From assembly GCA_951406725.2 (NCBI GenBank), contig OX597816.1, forward strand, positions 100,564,001 to 100,628,000: a stretch of 64,000 bases of DNA, written 5' to 3'. Within the stretch, counting starts at the first letter, position 1. Every line of letters begins with the position of its first letter. Origin of the DNA: Octopus vulgaris. Taxonomy: Eukaryota. The notes beneath the pieces were generated by a model, which made no database searches, was not told the origin of the DNA, and worked only from the letters and a program-made list of their open reading frames with translations. Below, one piece after another: positions 7,648 through 62,733 of this stretch. The translations under genes were made by a program, and so were the position numbers.

Positions 7648-8135
7648 TTGGGTCAACTCAAAAATAATGCGTGTTTTTCAATTGCATGAACTAAAAGCCA
7701 TAGGGGGACGGGATAAACTACCTGCATCAACTTGATAGAAAAACAGATAGTAATTTTACCTTGTACTTATTCTTATTGCAAGTTGTGAAGAGTGCAGTTC
7801 ATTTTTTAACAATTATTTTTTCAAAGCTATAATGGAAGTGACAAAGCAGCATATTCGACATATTTTGCTTTATGAGTTCAATAAAGGCAACAGTGCAATG
7901 GAAAATGTGAGGAATATTAATGCAGTACATGGGAATTGGACAATAAGTGTAAGCCAGTGTCAACGGGGGTTCCAGAAATTCCAAGCTGGAAACTATCGTC
8001 TAGAAAACGAGCCTCATATAAGAAGATCTGTAGAGCTTGATGAGGACATACTGCAAACCCTGGTGGAAAAAAATTCCATCATAACTGTTGAGGAACTAGC
8101 AGAGAAGCTTAGATTTGGTCATTCAACTATTCATA
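7648..8135 (+). mobile_element. mariner transposon 5' fragment (TIR plus N-terminal HTH of transposase), truncated by the tandem array
   Basis: TA then TTGGGTCAACTCAAAAATAATGCG, a TIR-like end. ORF from 7832 reads HIRHILLYEFNKG...CQRGFQKFQAGNYRLENEP...TVEELAEKL..GHSTIHR, the mariner DNA-binding domain. Homology stops at TA 8134-8135. Confidence 0.9.
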
Positions 8136-9027
8136 GACTGAGAGCACTAGTCAGCACCAGTATTGCTAGAAATAAGAGTTAAAAGAACTCATAGCCATGA
8201 AAAGCACTTATTTTAATGATTGACAAGAGAAGCAAGCTTCCTCAGCAACCAGGCATAGTCAGGTCACAGTGATATTGCATTTTTATTAATGCTCATCAGT
8301 GACTCTCACCTAGTGCCTTAAGTTAAACTTAACTTGCCTTGTTATTTTATAAGATTATTGTAGAAATCATACTCTGATTTCCTAAATGGTAAAAGTGAAA
8401 ATTATAAATAATAATGCTAGCTTATTTGCAATTTTACAACCAAAAGGCAGAAATATATATGTTGCTAAAGTGATTCAGGGTACTAGTCACCACCTGTATT
8501 GCTAGAAATAAGAGTTAAAAGAACTCATAGCCATGAGAAGCGCTTATCTTAATGACTGACAAGGGAGGTAAATTCCTTCAGTGTCCAGGCATAGCCAGAT
8601 TACAGTGATTTCACATTTTTATTAATGCTCATCAGTGACTCTCACCTAGTGCCTTGGATTAAACTCTACTCGCCTTGTCAGTTTATAAGATTATTGTAGA
8701 AATCATATGCTGATTTCCTAAATGGTATTGGTGAAAATTATAAATAACAAGGGTAGCTTATTCGTAATTTCACCACCGAAGAGCAGAAATATATATGTCA
8801 CGGAAGTGACTGAGAGCACTAGTTAGTCAGTACCAGTATTGCTAGAAATAAGAGTTAAAAGAACTCAAAGCCACAAGAAGCATTTATCTTAATGACTGAG
8901 AAGGGAAGCAAGCTTCCTCAATGTTTAGGCAGAGCCAGATCACAGTGATTTTTCATTTTTTTAAATACTTGTCAGTGACTTTCACCTAGCGCCTTGGGTT
9001 AAGTTCAACTCACCTTGTCAGTTTATA
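8136..9027 (-). repeat. Retrozyme-like tandem array, ~2.6 copies of a 336-340 bp unit, each with a hammerhead motif
   Basis: TATTGCTAGAAATAAGAG recurs at 8161, 8497 and 8837. HHR motif on the minus strand in each unit. No ORF. Confidence 0.85.
8593..8640 (-). ncRNA. Type I hammerhead ribozyme motif (best-preserved copy of the 338-bp array)
   Basis: Minus strand reads AGUCA CUGAUGA GCAUU-AAUAAA-AAUGU GAAA UCACUGUAA UC UGGCU, giving stem I, core, stem II, GAAA, stem III (one mismatch) and an AUC site. Copies at 8257-8304 and 8933-8980 have core mutations. Confidence 0.75.
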
Positions 9028-9365
9028 TATACTTTATATATTATTACAGTTTTATTTGCAACTTTCATAAATAATAAGTAGGAAAATTTCATGAATTTAA
9101 TGCTGATTTAACAGCTAAAAAAAAATGTAATTATCTGCTAGGTGATCACTATGAATGCATTGTCTTTTTTTTTTTTTTTCAACATATTTAATTATTATAG
9201 CGATTATAGTTCTTACAAAGAGATTTCTAGTGACCTTTTGTTTTTAAGGAAATAGTATGATAAAGGAAAATGTTTATAAAATAGAAACAGATATTTTTGG
9301 CAGAATTTACTTCTAAGCTGAAAATTTTTATGGCTATTAAAAAGAATAGCCAATATTTGGTAAAT

Positions 9366-32189: not shown

Positions 32190-33092
32190 ATTAGCTGAAG
32201 TTTTTTAAATACCATCCTGAAGTGAAAATTGAAATGATGAGTAATTTTATTGCTGCTAGTCATCCATAGCCATCCATCTTCCTTTTATACACAGTTATCT
32301 AGAATCATTTTATTCAGTGTATTTGTCTTTTTTAAAGATAGTGAGGTCTGATTTGAAGGATGAAATGACTGTGGCCTTCTTTGGATCAGGTAATGATGGG
32401 TGTTTCCACTGCATGGATTCTGCCTTTGTCTTTGGTTCAAAGTGATAAATCCAACACTCATCCTGGGTTAGGAAACATTCAAGGAAACTAGCTGGATCTG
32501 CCTCAAGCAATGTCATATTTTCCTGTGACATGATCAATCTGGTGCACTTTTAATCTGGTATCAGAAGAGGCAGCACCCATTGAGTGGAAACTTTTGTCAT
32601 GCTATGTTCATCATGCAGAATATTCTCATCTCTCTCATAGAATGTGCTTATAGCATTAGTTATTTGAGTTATGGTCAATTGTCTGTCAACACAATCAGTG
32701 TTTTCCTCAGTAGTGGCAGTTGCAGGACATCCAAACCTTGGGTCATCTTCAAGTCTCACCGTTCCCCTCCTAAATACATCTGCCCACTTTTGCACTGTTG
32801 ATAAAGCTGGTGCGTCGTCTCCTAATGTAGCATGTCAGCATGAATGTCCTTGGGGGTTAAAGCCTTTTTTCTGCAAGTTCTTGATAACAGCACAATGCCA
32901 AATTATGTTGATTTTTAAGAAAAGTTGGTACTAGCTATTTTTGTAGTCTTTTATGAACAATCAGATGTCAGTTTACTGGGAAAGAAACAATGCAGTTATT
33001 AAAAAGAAAATTCGAAATTAATGCATGCAAGATTTCACAGCTCCAGTGTCACTCCTTCATAGTCAGCCTATATACTTTTCAGCCCACCCTCA
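32190..33092 (-). mobile_element. mariner transposon, degenerate
   Basis: TA followed by TGAGGGTGGGCTGAAAAG TIR. Frameshifted transposase WADVFRRG..LEDDPRFGCP, KVSTQWVLPLL (WVP motif), TQDECWIYHFEPKTKAESMQW. Confidence 0.9.
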
Positions 33093-34203: not shown

Positions 34204-34895
34204 ATCAGGTCATCAAGAATGAAATGCTTGATTTTGAACTGAAAGTTTATTTTTCTTTATCTCAACAAAAAGCAGTGCAGTTAATCAAAGTATGCACTTA
34301 AATTATCAACACAATTTTACCATTTTATTGATAGCTTATTTAAGCTGGCAGTGAAGAATTCTGGAGAGCAAGAGGTGATGAAATCATGAAAGGCTGTTTT
34401 TGCATCTTCTTCAGATTTGAAGGTTTTTCCTAACAAAATGTTGTCTAATGCCTGGAAAACATGATAGTCATTTGGTGCAAGGTCTAGTGAATATGGTGGA
34501 TGACAGAGTTCTTTCAAGTTCAGTTCCTGTAACTTGAGTAGAGTTCTTTTTGCAACATATGGTAAAGCATTGTGTTGCAAGAGAATTGGCCTGTCTCTAT
34601 TGACCAACCTCAGTTGTTTAGTTGCAAGTTCACTCATCATTTCATCCAATTGGTTGATGTATACATCCACTGTAATTGACTTACCAGGGCTCATGAAGCT
34701 GTAGTGGATGACACCTGCAGTGGAGCACTAAACAGACACCATTAACTTTTTTTTGGTGAATATTCTTTTTTGGATTGTGTTTTGGGACTTCATCTCTATC
34801 CAGCCACCATGCAGAACACTTACTATTGTTGAAACAAATCCATTTTCCATCACTCATAACAATACAATGCAAAAATGGTTTGTTTTTATGTTGAT
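34204..34895 (-). mobile_element. mariner transposon 3' half, degenerate
   Basis: IVMSDGKW..., PILLQHNALPY...HPPYSLDLAPNDYH (YSPDLAP.D motif). TIR-like end next to the TA run at 34199-34204. Confidence 0.9.
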
Positions 34896-37585: not shown

Positions 37586-37752
37586 ATATATATATATCGT
37601 GACGTATTTTTGCCATTTCAATATGGCTAACCCCTAAGGGTGGATGCTACTGTAGTTTTTAGCCCCAGGAGAACACACTCCTCCAGCTGGCCATAGACAC
37701 ACTATCTGTGTCCTGTCAGTATTTGCAAAGGGAAGTCATCCTTCCCGTCTTC

Positions 37753-37820
37753 AACTTATGATACACACGGACTCGAGTTTCGAGGTATTGACCTCTCGTC
37801 AGCGTGTGACAATCATAGTT
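37753..37820 (-). ncRNA. Type I hammerhead ribozyme, intact
   Basis: Reverse complement of 38266-38333. Confidence 0.9.
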
Positions 37821-38265
37821 GTCGCCGAGAATTAGATTTCCTTCACAAATACTTATACTTTTTCCAGCGTCCACTGTCGCTGATATTGAAAAAGTGAAAT
37901 CAAACAATGATAAATATCAAAGTGAGTTATATACAGTAGCGGTAACACATCATGACGTATTTTTGCCATTTCAATATGGCTAACCCCTAAGGGTGGATGC
38001 TACTGTAGTTTTTAGCCCCAGGAGGACACACCCCTCCAGCTGGCCATAGACACACTATCTGTGTCCTGTCAGTATTTGCAAAGGGAAGTCAACCCTTAGG
38101 GGTTAGCCATATTGAAATGGCAAAAATACGTCACGATGTGTTACCGCTACTGTATATAACTCACTTTGATATTTATCATTGTTTGATTTCACTTTTTCAA
38201 TATCAGCGACAGTGGACGCTGGAAAAAGTATAAGTATTTGTGAAGGAAATCTAATTCTCGGCGAC

Positions 38266-38333
38266 AACTATGATTGTCACACGCTGACGAGAGGTCAATA
38301 CCTCGAAACTCGAGTCCGTGTGTATCATAAGTT
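38266..38333 (+). ncRNA. Type I hammerhead ribozyme, intact
   Basis: CACACG CUGACGA GAGGU-CAAU-ACCUC GAAA CUCGAG UC^ CGUGUG. Stem I is extended past an internal loop (UAUGAU/AUCAUA). Predicted cleavage after C38316. Confidence 0.92.
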
Positions 38334-38567
38334 GAAGACGGGAAGGATGACTTCGCTTTGCAAATACTGACAGGACACAGATAGTGTTTCTATGGCCAGC
38401 TGGAGGAGTGTGTCCTCCTGGGGCTAAAAACTACAGTAGCATCCACCCTTAGGGGTTAGCCATATTGAAATGGCAAAAATACGTCACGATGTGTTACCGC
38501 TACTGTATATAACTCACTTTGATATTTATCATTATATATATATACATATACATATATATACATATAC

Positions 38568-39071: not shown

Positions 39072-39329
39072 ATACATATATGTGTATAATTCATTTAAAC
39101 CATCTCTCATCAATTTCTCGTTCACACCAAACAACGTAAACTCCACTCACTCTTCCATTCAATCACACCCTATGCCACTACCCCAACTCCTACCCTACCT
39201 CTCTCACTCCTTGATACGCTCCCCCACCCTCACCTACCCCTGTCCCTCCCACCACCACTCCATCCACATACCTCATCCCCTCCCTCCCAACCTTCCACCA
39301 CCCCTCCTACTTCTGTCCCATCCACCCCT

Positions 39330-39843
39330 TCTCCACTTCAGTCTGTTGTTACCATTCCTCCAGATCATCCCCCTCTCTGAGACGAAGTGCTCCCTCTGCA
39401 GCAGGGGTGTGTGTTTCACCTCCCTCACTCCATCCAGCAACAAATTTTGGGCTCGTGCCGATATCTACAGCTTTGTGCACCACATTAGGTTTAGTGCGCT
39501 TTTCCGTGCCACTCCACCTGCATCTAATGAGAACTGCTTCACTAACCTGGGCTACCGACCATCCCAGTGGATGCAGCTCCTGGCGGTCGATCTTTTTGCA
39601 GGTGCCTGCCGGTTTGACTTTTCCAGGCATCCCCGGCATCTGAACATCTACCCAGTCAAACTCTCAGCTCTTCGATGTCTCCGACACTGCACGGACATCA
39701 TCATAAAACCGGCTGACAAGGGTGGATCCATGGTGGTGCGGCACGCGGTCCTCTACAAGGCGGAAGCTCTTCACTAACTTCAAGACACCTACTTCTACTG
39801 CCCTCCAGCCCCACACCCAGCTACCAACAGACTGTGTCCTCTA

Positions 39844-39845
<2 letters not shown>
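39330..39845 (+). mobile_element. Penelope-like element ORF fragment (region N-terminal to RT)
   Basis: [16 protein letters not shown] (like LS..E..LL.KGL.F) and [24 protein letters not shown], the PLE/TERT-like motif 1. Ends in a stop and (TA)n. Confidence 0.85.
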
Positions 39846-45039: not shown

Positions 45040-45160
45040 TAATTAATATCAACTTCCTAGATGTTACCCTCCACCTGGAATCAAGTATCTATAAGCCATA
45101 CAAATAAAATTCAGTGTATACATAAACAATCCAACCATCCCTAAAGCATTATCTAAAAAT
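45040..45160 (+). mobile_element. Penelope-like RT fragment
   Basis: INFLDVTLHLESSIYKPYK..HKQSNHP, the same motif as in the ORF at 62030-62140. Confidence 0.7.
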
Positions 45161-45778
45161 ACACACACCTGCATTAATATGCACTTATATAGTTTTAAAT
45201 TTAAGCAATAAATTACTAATCTACCTAGAACTACTATGTTCCTCTACTAACCAAAAACATTACCTTCCACCTACCTCTCCTCTCCCCACTTCTAACAAGT
45301 GCTAACTTAGTACCACTCCTTTTCTTTTACTCTGTTTGAATGTATTTATAGGGTGCCATAACTTATTTACTTATTCATTCTACAGTAGACCTAGTAAATG
45401 ACCTCAGCCTTAATTCACAAAAACATTCCCCTAGCCAGCTTCAATAATACCAATTTTTTTCCCCCTGCTCTTCTCCTTTTTCTCTTTTTCTTTATTCATA
45501 TTCTTATTCTTTTCCTTAACAGTTTTTGACTTTCACCCACTCCCATTTCTTCACAAATAGGCTTCCCTTTTGTTCACTCACTCTATGCTTTCCATGCATT
45601 TCTGATCAAATCTCCTGAGTTAACATGGAATCCCTTGACAATGTAACCTTCATTTGACAAAGATATATTTCTATAGAAATCATAGCCAGCACTGGTTTGT
45701 GATGATGTTTTGTATCTGAATGCATTTAATGTAAATAATGTGATAGAAGATGGAAAAATAGGTAATGGGTGTATATGC

Positions 45779-49829: not shown

Positions 49830-51384
49830 TGAAAATATCTGGAGATTCAGAAAATTATATTGCATACATATAAGAGAGATGACCACTAGGTGTACACCCA
49901 ATATGATAAATGTAGACCCCATATGGTCTGACCACTAAGAAAAATTTGTTCTCAAGAAAATTCAGCAATAAAAATTCCTACTGACACATGACTGGCAGAC
50001 TGACAAGTAGTAAAATCAAGTATTTAAGTTTTCATGCTATGCTATGTCTCAGCATTTATATGTATGGGAATAGTTGCATGAATTTGTATGTTATTAGATT
50101 TATTTGTATATGTTATATGTGAATAAATTCACCACATACATGTGGTGTTATTATCATAATTGATATGTATTTGTATTTTTAGTCAGATAAACTCACTATT
50201 TTAAAAGGAGACATAAACGAGTTTCAGTGCATGTACATGCATGGTACTTGATTTATTGCCTTGACTCTGCTTAGATTTATGCTTTGGTAATTCATTGGTT
50301 GTCTATCGGTTGTTGAGAGTTTCCAAATAAAGCAGACCAAGCTGAAAGGTTGTTGGTTTCAGAAAACAAGAGATTTTCAAAAATGCACCATAAAAACTAT
50401 GCACAACACCTGAAGGTGTACAAATAGAAAACTGGAAACAGTGTATCAAAAGAAAAGGGAACTACCTTAAAGGAGACAAGTGTAATTAAATTATAAGTAA
50501 AGCAATAACTTGGTATTTTTAAAAAAGTCCTGTAACTTTTTGGACAGAACTTATAATCTTGTCTATGGTAAAAAGAAAATAATTTTCAACATATGGTCTT
50601 CACAGTGAAAAGGTATTGCTTGTTCAGTATTTCTATGTTGGTAGTACAGGAAAACTGCTATAATTCAAATATATGCACGCATATGCATGAGTATATGCAT
50701 GCATGTGTGCAACTACTCACAGAGGCATATCTATAAATGCTTAAAAACACATGCATTTAAGTATACCAGTTATCGTATTTACATATACTCACATATATGC
50801 TTAAATGCATGTGTGTGTATGTGTATATATTAGCATGCACACATCATAAACATTCATTCACATGCACACTCAATAATTCCTGCATCTACTCAAACATATA
50901 TATAGAAACAGGTGGAATGTTTTTTTCATTATTGACAGAACAGAATCAATAGAATGTGTCAAATTCTTCATCTTCTGAAGAGTGCGAACTAGATCGTAGC
51001 CACTATTTTCTGTAGATTAGTGTTTCATTGGCATCTATAGTCTTCCATTGGTTAGGAAAAGCTCTAGTAATATGAATAGAGTAGTAGAGTAACATATCTT
51101 TAAATTCACACACACACATGTAAATTATCAACATGCATGTGACAGCTTTAAGTTAATAATGAAAATTCATTTACTATTAATTTCTGAAGATGGATGCTTA
51201 TTTGATATCAAATTTGGTTATCAAAAGTCTAATCATTGGTTCATTGCATCTCTGATGATGAGAGTGACAAACAATTACCAGTGCAACTAGAGTATAACAA
51301 ATGTCACACAGGGTATATTTATCTGAAAGCACCAAAGTCTTGGTTCTTCAAGATGTCTACATCTGTTACTAATTTTGCATGAGC

Positions 51385-53225: not shown

Positions 53226-55515
53226 ATGCATAAAAGAGGGATGACCACTAGGTGGACATATAATATGCTAAATGTAGACCCTATATGGTCTGACCATTAA
53301 GAAAATAATAAATATACCCTGTGTGACATTTGTTATACTCTAGTTGCACTGGTAATTGTCTGTCACTCTCATCATCAGAGATGTAATGAACCAATGATTA
53401 GATTATTGATAACCAAATGTGATATCAAATAAGCGTCCATCTTCAGAAGTTAATGGTAAATGAATTTTCATTATTAACTTAAAGCTGTCACATGCATGTT
53501 GATAATTTACATGTGTGTGTGTGAATTTAAAGATATGTTACTCTACTACTCTATTCATATTACTAGAGCTTTTCCTAACCAATGGAAGACTATAGATGCC
53601 AATGAAACACTAATCTACAGAAAATAGTGGCTATGATCTAGTTCGCACTCTTCAGAAGATGAAGAATTTGACACATTCTATTGATTCTGTTCTGTCAATA
53701 ATGAAAAAAATGTTCCACCTGTTTCTATATATATGTTTGTGTAGATGCAGGAATTATTGAGTGTGCATGTGAATGAATGTTTATGATGTGTGCATGCTAA
53801 TATATACACATACACACACATGCATGCACATATGCATATGTGCACATATATTTAAATTATAGCAGTTTTCTTGTACTACCAACATAGAAATACTGAGCAA
53901 GCAATACCTTTTCACTGTGAAGACCATATGTTGAAAATTATTTTCTTTTTACCATAGACAAGATTATAAGTTCTGTCCAAAAAGTTACAGGACTTTTTTA
54001 AAAATACCAAGTTATTGCTTTACTTATAATTTAATTACACTTGTCTCCTTTAAGGTAGTTCCCTTTTCTTTTGATACTTTTATGGTGCATTTTTGAAAAT
54101 CTCTTGTTTTCTGAAACCAACAACCTTTCAGCTTGGTCTGCTTTATTTGGAAACTCTCAACAACCGATAGATAACCAATGAATTACCAAAGCATAAATCT
54201 AAACAGAGTCAAGGCAATAAATCAAGTACCATGCATGTACATGCACTGAAACTCGTTTAAGTCTCCTTTTAAAATAGTGAGTTTATCTGACTAAAAATAC
54301 AAATACATATCAATTATGATAATAACACCACATGTATGTGGTGAATTTATTCACATGTAACATATACAAATAAATCTAACATACAAATTTATGCAACTAT
54401 TCCCATACATATAAATGCATATAATGATATGCTGAGACATAGCATATCATGAAAACTGAAATACTTGATTTTACTACCTGTCAGTCTTCCACTCAGGAGT
54501 GAGAGTGGGAAGCTGCTATGATATTTTTTCTGCTTTGTAGCCTATTTAATGTAAAATCATAGGAATGTTATGATTTGAAAGTATTGTTGTACTTTGGAAA
54601 GAGATCAGCCTTCAGGCATCTTTGACTTGGGTATTTATATCTTGTGCAATAAATTGCTAGCTGATTGATTTTAAATTGAGTGATCATCAGAATGGACCTG
54701 TCTCTTCAATTTTACAGATTAAAATGTTTATCATTTTATACTTACATGGTTTCTATTAGAAATACCAAAAATTATACTGAGAATTTAGTTTGTAGTGTGT
54801 GATCCTGCTGACATATGGTTTTAAGAAGGCTTAAATTCTCAATTCACATGAGAAAAGATTTCCATGATAAACTCTCTGAATTATTGATTTCAATCCCAAC
54901 AGGAATTAAATTACATATAGCTTCCAGAAAATACCTCAGCCCTTTGCTTTACATCTTGTGCATATTCTGTCATGCATATAAAATAGTCATTCAAATTCTG
55001 TATGAATATGGCAGACAGATAAACCCACACTATGTTGAATATCTTACAATAAGATGTTAAAGAAGGAAGGATTATGAACTGTGTAAATATATTTTGTGAA
55101 AGTGTGAAAATCAAAACCTTAATAATTATTGAAAGGTTTGAAGGTTTGTAATGAAAGGCTTGAAGTGGCAATAGTTTTAATGCAAAACATTAAAAACCAT
55201 ATGGTTGTTACAACTAAAGGCTGTCAGTAACAGTTTACTTCTAATTCTTTTGTTCTTTTGCAACTAAGAGTAATCCTAATGCAACTGATGTAAGTACAAC
55301 TTAGTCGTTGAGGATTTTCAAGAATGCATTGTATATTTAGCATATTTCTTTCTTTTTTTCTTACCAAGCACAAACATGATTCCTCACTCATTTTCACTTG
55401 CTGTAATTTAAGCATGTGTTGTTCTTCAGATAGCCTATATAACTAAAGAATCCTGCATGTAGAATCAAATACATATGTTTTGAATGTTTTCAAAGTCAAA
55501 ACAATGCAACATACA

Positions 55516-56160: not shown

Positions 56161-59100
56161 GATTATTCATAACTACAGGAAGACTAGAATATGATATATT
56201 TGTTGTTATTATTAGTTCCCTTTACATGACCTTCATTAATTTCATTATTGTTGTTTGTAGTACTACTATTATTAAGATTCTATGTATATCTATTTTTACT
56301 TGTATTATATTCTTACCTTGACTTATCATAATCATTATAATGGCCTTGATTATTTTTCCTCTTTTATTAAGTTATCAGAAGTAACAATTCAATAATTTCA
56401 CTGTGTACCTGTTAAAAATCTTATGGTATATGTTAGATTTTGGAAAATACTTATACAATGCAACAAAGAATTTTCTGAGTCACAAATATCATTCAAGGTT
56501 GCTAAGGAATTGTTAGGAAGAAAGCATGACTAAAGATCCATATAACAGAGATGCATGGTAGGGTGGTATGGCAAATGGATTTTACATATTTTCAAACATG
56601 ATTTTAGATAGAAAATAAGAGATTTGTGAAGGGAAATAGAATGTGTTGAAAAAGATTCATTAGATCAAAGTTTAACAACAATTAAGACATTGAGCATTGA
56701 TGTAGAGAAAAGATGATCTGTACTGCAGATGTTATCACATTCTTTGAAACTTTAACATTGTTGTTAAAAAGAAAAGTGCATGCTTGTTAGAATCATAGAA
56801 TAGGAAACAAAGGTTTCTGTATTGTCACAATCTGCTACATCAATCCTGGCACTGATCCTATATTGAAGTTTATGGCATTGGATGGATCTTTTGTAATTTG
56901 AACTCTCAGGTGGGACACTAGTTACATACTGATTGAGGAGAGATGGGATTATGTATAACTTGCAATGCAGCTTTGTAATGTGTTACACATGAATTTTGAT
57001 CTCTGAACCAAATACCTTAGCCTTTCACTAGAAAATGATTTCCACCAGTACCATCTTATAATGGCATTACACAAATTAAATTCTTGAAAGAAATAACACT
57101 TCAAGATTGACCTTCAAGGTTCACCTTCAGAGTTAATTAAATGCACCCAATATTTAAAAAATGATGTTAGGCCTAGCTGTGTTTTATCCCCCACCCTACC
57201 TGAAATAAGGGAAGATTTTTTTTTCATGGCACTTATTTGAAAAGTTGCCTGACAGGACACACAGCCTCATTTTCTCTTTGCTGGTTATTTCCATTTCAGA
57301 ATGAGCAGACTCCTAGGCAGGCTGGCTTCACAGGAGTTATAGAGCCACATTTTCCTTTAAGTTATTCTCATTATCCCTAACAAAATTAATAAATGACTTA
57401 CACATTTCCTTAACCCTATCAGCTCCATTTTCCCTCTTCTCTCCGCTCTTAATCATTCTTTTTTTATACATACAAACACAAAACTCATGTAAAATTATCT
57501 TCATTCTAGTGAATTATGTATAAAGCATAAAAATGAATATTTCAGGTTTATAGAATAATTATCTTAAGATTTTTCAGACAAGTGACTTAGAAGAAATGAG
57601 AAAACCCTTTAAATATGGAAAAACTAAATTCATTTCAGCCATTCATTGATAAGCAAATAAACAAGTTTGGTTTTCTTTCTTTTAAATCATCTCATTGAAT
57701 TGACTAAACCCACTGCTCTTTTTGCTTGATTTCATTATTTGTTTATACAGCTTTTTGTTTTGTGATTTTGAACTGGCAATAGGCTGTGTTTATCTCTTCA
57801 GTTTCATACTTGGAATTGGAATATTTCTCTGTATGCTTGTAGTATAATAGGAATAACCAGAAAACATCCCCCATTAACCAGTCTTCTAATGTAAAGCATT
57901 AAGCTGCTATGCAGTACACAGAATTTAGATGTTTCTTATGCAACCAGTTTGATGTTTATCGCACAGTAGTGTAGCTGTATTTGATTGGATATTTTCTTTT
58001 CTGCTAGTTACATTTAGAATTCTTTGTTATATCAACTTGTTTGTTTTGTTTATTAATTTATAACAAACAATGGACTAGAAATATGATAGATGAGTTAGAG
58101 GAATATGTATGTTTATTTGTAAATATGTATAAATATATATGTGCTAAAGTGTGTGTGTGTACAACTGCAGTAGATAAAAATGCATAGAAAAGCTTGTTTT
58201 TTCAGAATGAAGAACAATAATTTTTTTTTGAGTGATCTAGGTGCTTGTAAATAAAAAAATAAGTGAGATAGAAAACAGCTTAAAGATGACGAGAATTTTA
58301 TAGCATTGCATATGATAGGGCTAACTAGAATTCTGTCAAGACTAATTATCTCATTCATATTAATAAGGGAAGTGGGTAAATTGAGTAGAGGGATTTTATG
58401 CAAAACAAGTAGAAGAACAGGTTTCAGCATTCATAAGACAGTAGCTTAGAGTTGTAGTTAACAGGAGACTTAAATAAATGGTTTTATTTGAAGAAGAGTC
58501 AATATTGGTTGGAAGAATCTTTCATCTTCTTGATGATGTTCTTATGGTAATTGTGGCTGGCAACAAAAGGCTTGATTTTCCAGTCACTGATACTTTTCAA
58601 ACTTTGAGCTTTAGGAGATTTTTGTATGGTCTATCAATCTGCTAGAAATACTAACCAAATTCCATCATATCACATCCTCTTGTCTTATTATATGCGATAG
58701 CTTTGTACCTCATGACAGAACCAGGATTGGTGTATGAAGGGAGCAAGATAATGTTGATAGATTGAACTAAGAGTGTGGTAGGAGAAGAGAATGACAAATT
58801 TAATAGAGGTAGACAGTGTTAAGAGTAATGGATGTTAGTAACAAATAGCAAAGGAGAAGCAGAAATGGTTGGCAGTTCTGAAAGGATTGGTGGTAGACTG
58901 TGGTAGGTGACAGAGGTAGCAGAATTGCTATTAGATAGGTTCTCTCATTATACAGTGAATAGCAGAAAGTGAGAGGGTTCCACAGGTCCTATAACATTCC
59001 TAATTATACATGTAGCATAATACAGTGAATAGGAGAGCTCCACTGCCATCCTTAGACACACTAGAAGCAGAGTATAGTGAAGAGAGGGTGAATGATAGAG

Positions 59101-61034
59101 AATGTAGACTAGAGTGAATTAACAGAATAAAAGGCCGATGGTCATGGTTGAAATGCTTTTGGTTATAGGTTTGCAAAGCTGGGCTATAAAATAACAACTT
59201 TCCAATGTTTGTTTTGTGTTTCGCAAAGTCATTTTTTGAAGAATACAGAATAGAAAAAACAGTTTACAAGAATTATATTTGTAGTGGGTCAGTTGACATA
59301 CATATTTACATATACTGATTATTATTAGAATAAAAAAGCAGACATTGTTTGGCTCATTAAAATGACTTGAATATCTTGAATATTCTGACTTGAATAAAAG
59401 TTTTAAAATGATTTTGAATATTATTTGTTTGGCTATATCCCCTTTACTAGTTAAAATTCACTATTATATGATCTATAATTTAATCTTATATATTCTATAA
59501 TTTGATCAAAAACAAAAAAAGTTATCAAAATTCACATGTTCTTTGGGTTTTTTTGTTATTATTAAACAGCATAAATTAATTTCCATATTGTTATTCATTA
59601 ACAGTGTTTGCCATTCAAATTATTAATAACATTTACTATTGAGTCCCTCAAACAATAAGTCCTAATTTGTGCCAGTGGCTAGCATAGCCTGAAGCAAATA
59701 AATCTTAATCTACTTTGAGAATCCTTGTCATCTTTGCAAGAAAATGAATTGGTCAGAAGTCATGGAATTTTAAAAGTTCCTTATTATTTTTATCTTCATC
59801 ATGATAATCATTGTTTCAAATATTTCCTTTTATATTAGAAGTATTATCTGATAGTATAGTATGGTTTCAACTTGTCAGAATAAGATTACTCAAATATACT
59901 GTAAAATATATATGCACTCGTAAACTTAAGAAGGTGCTTAAGTATCTATAAAATATTTCAACAGATCTTTATTGGTAAATTAATTTACCATAAAGCTTGT
60001 ATATGTATATTTGCATTGACTTATTGTTCTTTGCTGTATAGATTATATACACAGAAATCACTAGTGAAAGCTTGCATTTGAAACTCACAGATGTTTACAA
60101 GCAGAATTAAATTTTGCAACCACTCTAATAACTATGAAAACATTGCTAAATTCTACTGCTAAATTTAGCTTCTTTTGGCAATAATTTCACCAATTAGCTC
60201 CAACATCTAATCATGCTAGTATCAAATAAAGTAGTTGGTAATCTTCTTGTTATATTTCAGGAATTAGTCTTGGGGTTTCACACATTAATATCTTTTTTTT
60301 TTGTTTTCGATTCACAGGCATGTTTCTTAATTACTAGTAAAACAGACCTCTTGAACCATTAGTAGGTATGTGTGTGTGCATGTGAATGTGGAATGATGTA
60401 TACAAAAAAAAAAAAAGCAAGAGTAAGAAAGTAAACTATTTTGTATCATAAACAGTTTGACCATCATGGTTAGATTCTCTGAAATGCTATATATAGAGGG
60501 AATCTTTGCTAAAGATCTTCCAAAATTGCTTTTGATGTAGGATTCAATGCATCTTTTTCCAATTACTTTTCTGTTTTGGCATATTTTTGGAACTATTTTC
60601 TTAACATTACAAATATTAATAAATCAATATATATTAGTAACTGGAAGACCTTACAGCTTAAAAAAAAAAAATTAACTGTCTTAATCAACATGTGTATAGA
60701 TGCTGCAATTTTGTTTAACCCTTTTTATAATTTTATTTAAATACTCTCGGTAAAAGTGACATGATGTTACTAGATAGTTGTCTTCTAATCAGTGCCTGTG
60801 TTTCCAGTTATGCTACTGGCCAACCACTTTTAGCAATTACTATTTAATGTCTACACCATTTGGAGAAAGATTACAAAAAGCTAGTATTAGTGGAAAATAT
60901 TTGTAAGCAGACATAATGAGTTGAGTGAGGAAGATTGGCTACAATTTGTATGATTAGTGAAAGTTAAATAGTCTGACTGATTTTGTTCTACTGGCAAAAT
61001 AGCCTATTTCTCATCAGTATTTGTAAATTTACAG

Positions 61035-61162
61035 GTGCTGGAGCTCACATACGCACAAGTGCTGGCATAGGAAGTAGTGGCTGTGGTACAGCTGGTAAAC
61101 AGAGTGATTACATAGTCCAGTTTGGGGATGCTCTTGATGTCAAACCCTATCTTAGTATTGAG
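61035..61162 (+). CDS. Internal coding exon of an unidentified host gene (phase 1 to phase 0)
   Basis: tttacag| acceptor and GAG|gtaagt donor. 128 nt, GC higher than flanks, a single open frame: (x)AGAHIRTSAGIGSSGCGTAGKQSDYIVQFGDALDVKPYLSIE. Confidence 0.75.
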
Positions 61163-61475
61163 GTAAGTATTATTTATCTATGAATCAACATTTCTTTTCA
61201 CAATTCTCTACTTTACTCAAGAAAAAAAGCTATACTTTTGTTGTTAGTCTCTTTCAAAACAAAAAAATTAAGTTGATTGCATGTATAAAATATTACTCAA
61301 ATACATGATATAAATTATTATATGTTACTTTAAAGTAGTTGAAAATAACTACTTATCATTTATTTCTTTTCTAAATTCCACTATTGCTTCAAATATTTGT
61401 GCACTTTTTATATATTTTAGTTACTTATTGATTTTACTAGTCTAGCATGAAATATTTGGATATATATATATATAA

Positions 61476-61515
<40 letters not shown>

Positions 61516-61517
<2 letters not shown>

Positions 61518-61830
61518 TAATAGTAATGATAAGACAGCAAAAGAATGACCTCGATATTATGTAAATAGAGGAATTTATCTGTAATATAATATGTGACTAT
61601 TATTCGGTTGCTATAATAAGATTCCGAGTTTCGGGTATCACGACAGAAACCTGCTCCGGCATCTCTTCAGTTATCGAGGCAATCAAAATATGCTATGAAA
61701 ATGACCATTAGACAAAGGGAAATTACTATGTTATTGACTGTTATTAAGAGAAAAAAGCTATTAGAATGACCGTTAAATAAGGGGAAAAACTGATGGAGGA
61801 AGTAAAAAGTGAAGAAGTAAAAATGCTCAT
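61516..61830 (-). mobile_element. Inverted pseudo-LTR of the adjacent PLE, with degenerate HHR (61615-61675)
   Basis: Abuts (TA)n. Minus strand reads GAUAA CUGAAGA...CCC GAAA CUCGGAA UC UUAUU, with stems II and III mismatched. Confidence 0.55.
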
Positions 61831-61879
61831 TGCAATCACATATGCGCGCATGTACCCTACTCAATATGTTGGGCAAGAC

Positions 61880-62690
61880 TTTTCTTGATGTATATTTTGC
61901 CATTTACAAAGATGATGGCCTAGCTTTAACCGCAAATACCAATGGATCAGCACAAGATCTGTTTAGGAAGGACATTATCCAAATGATGAAAACTTTCAGT
62001 CTTAGCATAACTACAGATACCAACCTGATGGTTGTCAATTTCCTAGATGTATCCTTAGATCTAAATAAGAATATTTATGAACCTTATAGGAAGCCCGGTG
62101 ATAGACTTAGTTATATTAATGTGGGTTCCTGCCATCCCCCCATGGTGTTTAAAAATTTAGTTAAAAACATTAGCAGAAGAATTTCTAGCCTCTCCTCCGA
62201 TAGGGACATTTTCAATAGCATTACCCCAGTATATAATAATGCTTGCTCTAAAAGATAGTGGATTTAGCAAGGAAATAACCTATAGATCTGTCACCAGTCC
62301 AGTAATAAATAAAAGGAAACATATGAATAGGAAAACTATCTGGTTCACTCACCCCTACTCCCCCCAAAGTGACCATTAATATAGGAATTTCAAGGCCAGG
62401 TTCAACAATCACACCTTGAGCTTCAGGCACTGGGATAAAAGGAAAAGGACCAAAATTATCCAGTCATATATGGTCCTTAAAAGATAAAGGTGTCAATTAC
62501 AATACGTTGGAAGATCTTAACCAAGTGTAAGCCTTACACTAATGGCAGTAGAAAGTGCGGTCTTTGTGATATGGAAAGATGGCTCATCTGGAAAAGCAGC
62601 TTAGACCTTGCTACATGTCGAAATTCAAGAACTGAACTTTTTGGATCATGTTCACATAGCTAAATATTTGTTACATTTTTGGTCCCCCCA
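61880..62690 (+). mobile_element. Penelope-like retroelement, RT C-terminus plus endonuclease region, decayed (Naiad-like)
   Basis: YKDDGL, VVNFLDVSLDL..YEPYRKP..SCHPP. Then frameshifted TIWF..PYS, FKARFNNHTLSF, LSSHIWSLKD, CGLCDMER and NSRTEL..CSH. The GIY-YIG signature segment itself appears deleted. Confidence 0.9.
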
Positions 62691-62733
62691 GGATCGCAGA
62701 TAGAACCTGCTTTTTATATTGTGTCCATACATA

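Follow-up and report, generated by a model that had tools for sequence, protein, structure and literature searches.

Tandem Array and Its Contents

The DNA analyzed here is a 64-kb stretch of the Octopus vulgaris genome, hereafter the window, and the feature of interest is a head-to-tail tandem repeat adjoining a mariner fragment (Table 1). The octopus origin agrees with a repeat-derived frame of the window, which matched 9 proteins, 8 of them named Octopus vulgaris. TRF reported this repeat at 8146-9027, with a period of 336, 2.6 copies, 83% matches and a score of 1219, as the sole long-period array at the locus, and BLAST moved its left edge to 8136 by matching 8136-8351 to 8808-9027. The two programs confirm the 2.6 direct repeats with periods of 336 and 340 that had been described from the letters alone (the sequence-only reading). 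The hammerhead core discussed below lies at 8299, 8635, and 8975, giving spacings of 336 and 340 bases, the difference being a 4-base insertion near the start of copy 3.

Comparison of the six frames of the array with Pfam gave one weak match below the cutoff and none of note, and tblastn with 17 proteins of Penelope-like elements (PLEs) found no match inside it. Likewise, no reverse transcriptase (RT) or GIY-YIG ORF was found in or beside the array by six-frame Pfam searches and by tblastn with queries from one PLE clade. In the search for further copies, a profile of the unit's short incidental ORF returned 8 weak multi-stretch matches among 1.84 billion proteins, which were taken as noise. 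Beyond chance matches of 27 nt, BLAST found no second copy of the unit in the window. An exact 31-mer of the array occurred 0 times in bacterial and archaeal genomes, a search that serves as a contamination check only, and phage records searched with the array gave no match.

Table 1. Coordinates of the array, its predicted RNA features, and its junctions
Feature	Position	Strand	Description
Mariner 5' part	7648..8137	+	putative terminal repeat after TA run, ATG at 7832, 102 codons of the DNA-binding region
Left junction	8134..8138	+	8136-8138 fit both mariner frame and unit; 2-3 nt microhomology
Tandem array, 2.6 units (336/340 bp)	8136..9027	-	head-to-tail, 35.6% GC, no coding remnant detected
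Right junction	9022..9040	+	TA-rich overlap, 8-nt direct repeat
Hammerhead remnant, copy 3 (first in RNA order)	8933..8980	-	breaks at core positions 8 and 12 and in pair 10.1-11.1
Hammerhead, copy 2	8593..8640	-	full core; helix I 5 bp, helix II 5 bp, AUC triplet
Hammerhead remnant, copy 1 (last in RNA order)	8257..8304	-	core positions 12, 14, and 16.1 broken
Extended hammerhead, copy 2	8585..8649	-	outer 5-bp helix past internal loop in helix I
Extended hammerhead, copy 1	8249..8313	-	
Extended hammerhead, copy 3	8925..8989	-	outer helix partly broken
Predicted 340-nt monomer	8598..8937	-	between cleavage sites of copies 3 and 2
Predicted 336-nt monomer	8262..8597	-	between cleavage sites of copies 2 and 1

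The three copies are almost equally distant from each other, with pairwise identities of 181, 178, and 177 of 215 common columns and 16, 17, and 20 private changes (chi-square p 0.78); over the same columns, 41 transitions and 12 transversions were counted. Variable columns make up 10 of the 45 inside the hammerhead and 44 of the 170 outside. Because the copies are equidistant and the hammerhead has decayed as fast as the rest, they indicate one joint origin with no selection since. The array is a fossil in which three copies have decayed neutrally after a single old event, and the fossil state claimed in the sequence-only reading is supported. The K2P distance between copies is 0.18-0.21, or about 0.1 per copy, which would date the array very roughly to 25-30 My if the octopus calibration given in the available part of PMC13282606 (0.09 = 25 My) applies, a figure inflated by CpG changes. 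The locus is almost certainly inactive today.

Each unit also contains an internal 8-nt TA run (8453 and 8789), slightly past the RNA-sense end phase of the array. An ancestral PLE may have had its natural 3' end, matching a TA target, at this run.

Junctions with the Mariner Fragment

The mariner fragment matches HTH_48 (Pfam, E 1.2e-16) and aligns with a relative through Arg102, and no matching mariner 3' terminal repeat was found in the 64-kb window. The right flank of the array was tried as a mariner 3' end and rejected, since 215 and 674 of 1000 shuffles scored as high in the comparisons with the 5' end and 340 of 1000 in the comparison with the 3' end of another mariner. Further mariner fragments, of a family other than that of the array's neighbor, occur on the minus strand at 32313-32834 (HTH_48, weak) and 34317-34727 (Transposase_1, E 1.5e-07).

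The array had been said to start right after a TA and to end in TATATAT. A TA does lie at 8134-8135, but it merely forms the codon boundary between His101 and Arg102; the right end is indeed TA-rich, without being a microsatellite, but the run belongs partly to the unit and partly to the flank. The left end lies within mariner coding sequence. No clear target duplication was found, just TA on each side and none longer than 4 bp, and the TA was rejected as evidence of such a duplication because the mariner does not resume beyond the array. With only short microhomology at the junction and the target duplication not evident, the claim that the insertion truncated the mariner is not upheld: its missing part may have been lost at insertion or in a later microhomology-mediated deletion, and both fit equally.

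Hammerhead Motifs in the Three Copies

The hammerhead lies on the minus strand, antisense to the mariner ORF; the sequence-only reading gave no strand. Three helices surround the core, with the open ends in helix I, which is the type I layout. The core elements CUGANGA, GAAA, and UH are complete in copy 2 only (one of three), and this copy closes helix II with a G-U at 10.1-11.1 and has one mismatch in helix III. Copy 3 is changed at positions 8, 11.1, and 12; the G10.1-C11.1 pair survives only in copy 1 and G12 only in copy 2. The damage differs from copy to copy, as had been noticed earlier. The predicted cleavage sites lie at 8938/8937 in copy 3, 8598/8597 in copy 2, and 8262/8261 in copy 1.

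Over 19 pairs, 53 of the 57 helix cells are paired, compared with 26-37% when the partners are slid, in a structure derived from the same sequences. Compensatory changes number 0 among the 19 pairs, although three neutrally decaying copies are hardly able to show any. In copies 1 and 2, loop 2 has the sequence AAUAAA, which is the polyadenylation hexamer (minus strand, 8278-8288 and 8614-8624). The minus strand of the array contains no others, and chance in AT-rich DNA may account for the two.

CpG Decay and a Possible Ancestral Core

The claim that the copies combine into a complete hammerhead holds for the motif letters as they were written, but the strict majority consensus has A12 and no majority at position 11.1 and is therefore an incomplete hammerhead. 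Across the three copies, positions 11.1-12 read CA, TG, and AA, as expected where a CpG has decayed. Of the 14 double-transition columns, 6 show CA/TG double changes of this kind, where a share of 0.117 was expected (P 0.003), and two of these fall on hammerhead positions 7-8 and 11.1-12. The posterior of an ancestral CG at 11.1-12 is 0.14, 0.50, 0.72, and 0.82 for four assumed CpG rates; allowing for CpG decay would restore the G12 that is absent from the plain majority consensus.

Positions 7-8 read TG, TG, and CA, with a posterior of 0.25-0.86 for C7. This suggests that the ancestral core may have had C7, against the U7 of both the majority and the consensus proposed in the sequence-only reading. 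According to the accessible text of PMC9476566, octopus methylation is found mainly in gene bodies and satellites and is low on transposons, and because of this low level the CpG-decay argument rests on the local pattern.

Chance Controls and Covariance Models

A type I descriptor with an exact core, at least 5 bp in helix I, and at least 4 bp in helix II, its thresholds set after seeing the site, matched three times in the 64 kb on both strands: at copy 2 and at the two hammerheads of a repeat family with a 353-bp unit. It matched 0 of 20000 shuffles of the array and 0 of 100 shuffles of the window. When letters could be chosen freely among the three copies, a full hammerhead was obtained in 9 of 20000 column-shuffled alignments.

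Covariance models gave a different picture. Up to E 10, Rfam returned 7 matches in 8000-9150 with no hammerhead family among them, so that all three copies were missed, and Rfam Hammerhead_1 does detect the motif of the 353-bp family (32.2 bits). None of the three genomic copies reached the threshold of an Rfam hammerhead model. Old copies escape the standard ribozyme models, so that the number of such elements is probably underestimated. A model built from the 353-bp hammerhead had 0 of its 26 matches in the array. With a bacterial model, made from 17 helix-filtered type I hammerheads of 120 loci and with the triplet fixed to GUC by the collecting pattern, copies 2 and 1 ranked fourth and fifth of 17 matches in the 64 kb, but their scores were no better than noise (11.6 bits, E 0.6, and 10.9 bits, E 0.96) and one unrelated site was higher.

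These results bear on the simplest rival, namely, that the array is a plain short satellite and the hammerhead a chance hairpin completed by selective reading of three copies. The missing significant covariance-model score fits it, as does the lowest-energy fold of each copy, which is not a hammerhead; yet copy 2 passes the descriptor by itself where 0 of 20000 shuffles do, free choice of letters yields 9 in 20000, and in the accepted 353-bp hammerhead, too, the monomer optimum is some other fold. We consider a plain satellite scarcely credible, and that the array descends from a working hammerhead is very probable.

Predicted Folding of Monomer, Dimer, and Circle

The reconstructed monomer favors a hairpin in which the helix III arms pair with the core and the helix I strand (-15.8 vs -11.6 kcal/mol), and the pair probabilities of helices I and III in it do not exceed 0.07. 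For two reconstructed copies with C7, the unconstrained two-molecule optimum is a dimeric hammerhead with pair probabilities of 0.74-0.98, in which helices I and III are intermolecular, the latter with 5 plus 5 pairs around a U-U. The folding margin of this dimer is about 1.5 kcal/mol in a model without tertiary contacts, and U7, the majority state, lowers the probability of the dimeric fold to about 0.04-0.07. The earlier suggestion that the quasi-palindromic stem III suits a dimeric hammerhead is thus supported, at the level of prediction, by the reconstructed C7 pair. Neighboring genomic copies are predicted not to adopt the dimeric hammerhead. Cleavage would be slightly more apt to depend on the dimer than to proceed without it.

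As circles, the reconstructed units gave z values of -2.4 to -4.3 in all six reconstructions, and the genomic monomers gave weak ones (340 nt, z -2.59; 336 nt, z -1.07; antisense, -1.3 and -0.9).

The AUC triplet of the array is unusual, a point not raised in the sequence-only reading. According to the accessible part of PMC1636495 (2006), it is essentially absent from natural hammerheads, as AUC pairs with the core CUGAU, and the single type I exception named there is Schistosoma douthitti. C7 would weaken this pairing of AUC with the core. A palindromic helix III in repeat hammerheads was already known (PMC3088659, in the part available), and the text available of PMC7229834 leaves open how animal retrozyme circles avoid self-cleavage. 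The AUC triplet, together with a predicted lock of the monomer and its release in the dimer, offers a cheap testable point on how such circles stay closed.

Comparison with Retrozymes

In the sections available of PMC7229834, metazoan non-LTR retrozymes are tandem units of 150-450 bp with less than 50% GC and type I hammerheads, which give circular RNA and have PLEs as likely helpers; the model is repeated in PMC7761336, as far as its accessible text goes. The retrozyme-like anatomy claimed at the outset is supported by a non-coding 336/340 bp tandem of 35.6% GC with one type I hammerhead remnant per unit, and the array shows every anatomical retrozyme feature tested except a target duplication. 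It shares with the retrozymes of Acropora, Mytilus, and axolotl (PMC7229834, same sections) the 150-450 bp tandems, the GC content below 50%, the one type I hammerhead per unit, and the lack of coding capacity, and its host shares with theirs the presence of PLEs in the same genome; the mussel units, of 350-390 bp, compare with 336/340 bp here. Unlike these retrozymes, the array is a fossil with one of three cores intact, an AUC triplet, and a cephalopod host, and its helix III is an 11-nt quasi-palindrome, where theirs is a stem of 1-2 bp capped by a loop of 2-4 nt.

The satellite hammerheads of newt and axolotl, as described in the accessible parts of PMC7229834 and PMC4209133, resemble the array in their units of about 330-350 bp and in dimer cleavage through a palindromic helix III, which for the array is predicted. 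In these animals a helix III of insufficient length disables the monomer, whereas that of the array could reach 4 pairs and the competing hairpin is what is predicted to block it. In the available text of 10.64898/2026.07.22.740005, non-LTR retrozymes occur in 20 of 31 vertebrate genomes and are tied to PLE terminal repeats, and among nine tested dimers one cleaved and eight did not. The activity criterion used there, two consecutive complete hammerhead units, concerns activity and not descent; here, one of three units is complete.

We found no report of a cephalopod or octopus retrozyme or hammerhead in the open-access literature, and the array would extend hammerhead tandem retroelements to the cephalopods. 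It looks like a further, long-dead octopus example of an element kind known from many animals.

Relation to Penelope-like Elements

Helix III of the array resembles that of Hydra-clade hammerheads, a link to PLEs that the sequence-only reading did not make. In the available parts of PMC8557442, 26 of the 27 Hydra families, one of them from Octopus bimaculoides, target (TA)n by preference (File S1), and 17 of 26 rows show hammerheads with a self-complementary helix III around one central base (File S2). The array resembles the Hydra-clade PLEs, including Hydra-1_Obim, in a type I hammerhead near the 3' end, a TA-rich target, which the array shows at its right end, and presence in octopus. The likeness of helix III is in shape only; it spans 11 nt in the array and 9 nt in those 17 rows, one pair being added. 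The array has no ORF. Other details differ: the array has U15.2-A16.2 where all 26 Hydra rows listed have C-G, A before the U of the triplet (AUC) where all 26 have G, and no extra base after position 9, which is absent in just 6 of 26. The minimal hammerheads of PLEs in the accessible text of PMC4209133 have a helix II of 7-8 bp and an unpaired base after position 9, whereas the array has 5 bp, no such base, and an outer helix in addition. The unit showed no similarity to the flanks of the PLE in the window (z below 1), and five short motifs gave 0 matches in the partial, line-wrapped text of the PMC8557442 supplement.

A second rival would derive the array from the terminal repeats of a 5'-truncated autonomous PLE, left as a partial tandem. 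PLE partial tandems do carry hammerheads in their pseudo-LTRs (PMC8557442 and PMC4209133, parts available), and the helix III is Hydra-like in the respect just given; nevertheless, for three units of equal period, truncation would seem to have to recur at a single point. Queries from one PLE clade gave no RT or endonuclease match within or next to the array, and both the long helix II and the additional base after position 9 that the available text describes for the PLE minimal type are missing from its hammerhead. This origin is quite improbable.

A broken Hydra-like PLE does occur in the window at 61520-62700, with an RT end and GIY-YIG pieces on the plus strand. Relatives of the remnant at 61.8-62.7 kb carry DKT-type motifs, and it resembles Hydra-1_Obim by eye, as far as the published material available allows a comparison. 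A hammerhead-like core is present upstream, on the minus strand at 61670, and a TA run spans 61460-61516. Short tblastn matches to PLE RT proteins lie at 45048-45179 and 56384-56476 (E about 1e-4 to 0.05). Two hammerhead-bearing repeats of different age and unrelated to each other occur with PLE remnants in one 64-kb window.

Origin of the Array

On the best explanation, which we regard as moderately probable, the array is a fossil of a hammerhead-bearing, non-autonomous element of the non-LTR retrozyme type that most likely arose from a PLE and was mobilized by one. A source array would have been transcribed by read-through on the hammerhead strand, and neighboring hammerheads, as folding of the reconstruction predicts, would pair via the 11-nt quasi-palindromic helix III, dimerize, and release unit-length RNA. 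A host ligase, the ligation being known from the literature, would then close the RNA into a circle, in which the lone hammerhead is predicted to be locked in the competing hairpin. A PLE reverse transcriptase may have copied the circle more than twice, with the cDNA entering a TA-rich site. The three inserted copies then decayed neutrally. One multimeric RNA-templated insertion is itself rather probable, and, given such an insertion, a PLE is the likely helper.

The strongest competing explanation is amplification on the spot: a single PLE 3' end or retrozyme monomer would have inserted and then been multiplied as DNA to 2.6 copies, whether by a single rolling or slippage event or by two duplications in quick succession, producing a multimer without circular RNA. 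Such a route is proposed in the available text of 10.64898/2026.07.22.740005, and the absence of a second locus in the 64-kb window agrees with it. In addition, the last hammerhead ends 121 nt from the RNA-sense 3' end, close to the corresponding hand-computed distance of 29-118 nt in 5 of the 26 Hydra rows listed. Equal divergence of the three copies disfavors stepwise duplication, although a near-simultaneous duplication would likewise yield equidistant copies; furthermore, no endonuclease remnant lies in the approximately 210 nt upstream of each hammerhead, and, as a circle, the reconstructed unit is predicted to fold more stably than shuffled versions of it. Taken together, amplification of this kind is unlikely.

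A LINE in place of the PLE is another potential helper, a possibility left open in the sections available of PMC7229834, and LINEs are active in O. vulgaris (PMC13282606, part available). However, the RNA-sense 3' end carries neither poly(A) nor a simple-repeat tail, the search for a target duplication yielded nothing more than TA, no tRNA gene was found, and the hammerhead strand has no polymerase III boxes; a LINE-moved retrozyme is accordingly very improbable, slightly more so than the truncated PLE. A SINE-type promoter was also considered and rejected, as no tRNA gene was found and one B-box-like 9-mer occurs on the opposite strand of copy 3 only.

Returning to the PLE-moved retrozyme, a more specific version is doubtful, less probable even than DNA amplification: an octopus retrozyme family carried by Hydra-clade PLEs, with the hammerhead as a switch, in which the helix III arms would pair with the core and lock the monomer circle, two tandem copies would pair through the same palindrome and cleave, and C7 would make the rare AUC workable. 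If this were true and younger copies were expressed as circles, the switch would explain from sequence alone how self-cleavage is avoided, and a retrozyme with its candidate helper would form a tractable pair for testing mobilization by PLEs.

The 353-bp Family and Other Features of the Window

The 353-bp hammerhead family occupies 37596-38533 as two partial tandems that diverge from 38089-38094 and have their outer ends on TA runs, an inverted layout of the PLE type. Its unit has a circle z of -5.8, and its dimeric fold is the two-molecule optimum. The array resembles this family in unit size, in a type I hammerhead with an outer helix, in a dimeric two-molecule optimum, and in TA-rich ends, and the two have a CUGACGA-type core in common if position 7 of the array was C. 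In contrast to the array, the family is young (142 of 146 identical), CpG-rich, and inverted, has a GUC triplet, and is detected by Rfam. Beyond the motif, the two units gave a z of 1.4, with 18 of 200 shuffles as high; this lack of detectable homology sustains the view of the sequence-only reading that the two are unrelated in sequence. The 353-bp family is a better experimental target than the old array. An open frame with a DKG motif, a motif typical of PLE reverse transcriptases, adjoins it at 39100-39845 (plus strand) between TA runs and had no Pfam match.

No host gene was identified by Pfam among 30 of the 94 candidate frames, nor by the atlas and PDB for one candidate exon. An exon-like open frame, possibly of a host gene, is present at 60977-61180 (plus strand), with no match in Pfam, atlas, or PDB. 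BLAST revealed a large inverted repeat pair at 49981-51322 and 53308-54503, with 88-96% identity. Finally, a long AT-rich hairpin at 24817-24916 matches several microRNA models below their gathering scores and could be a small inverted-repeat element.
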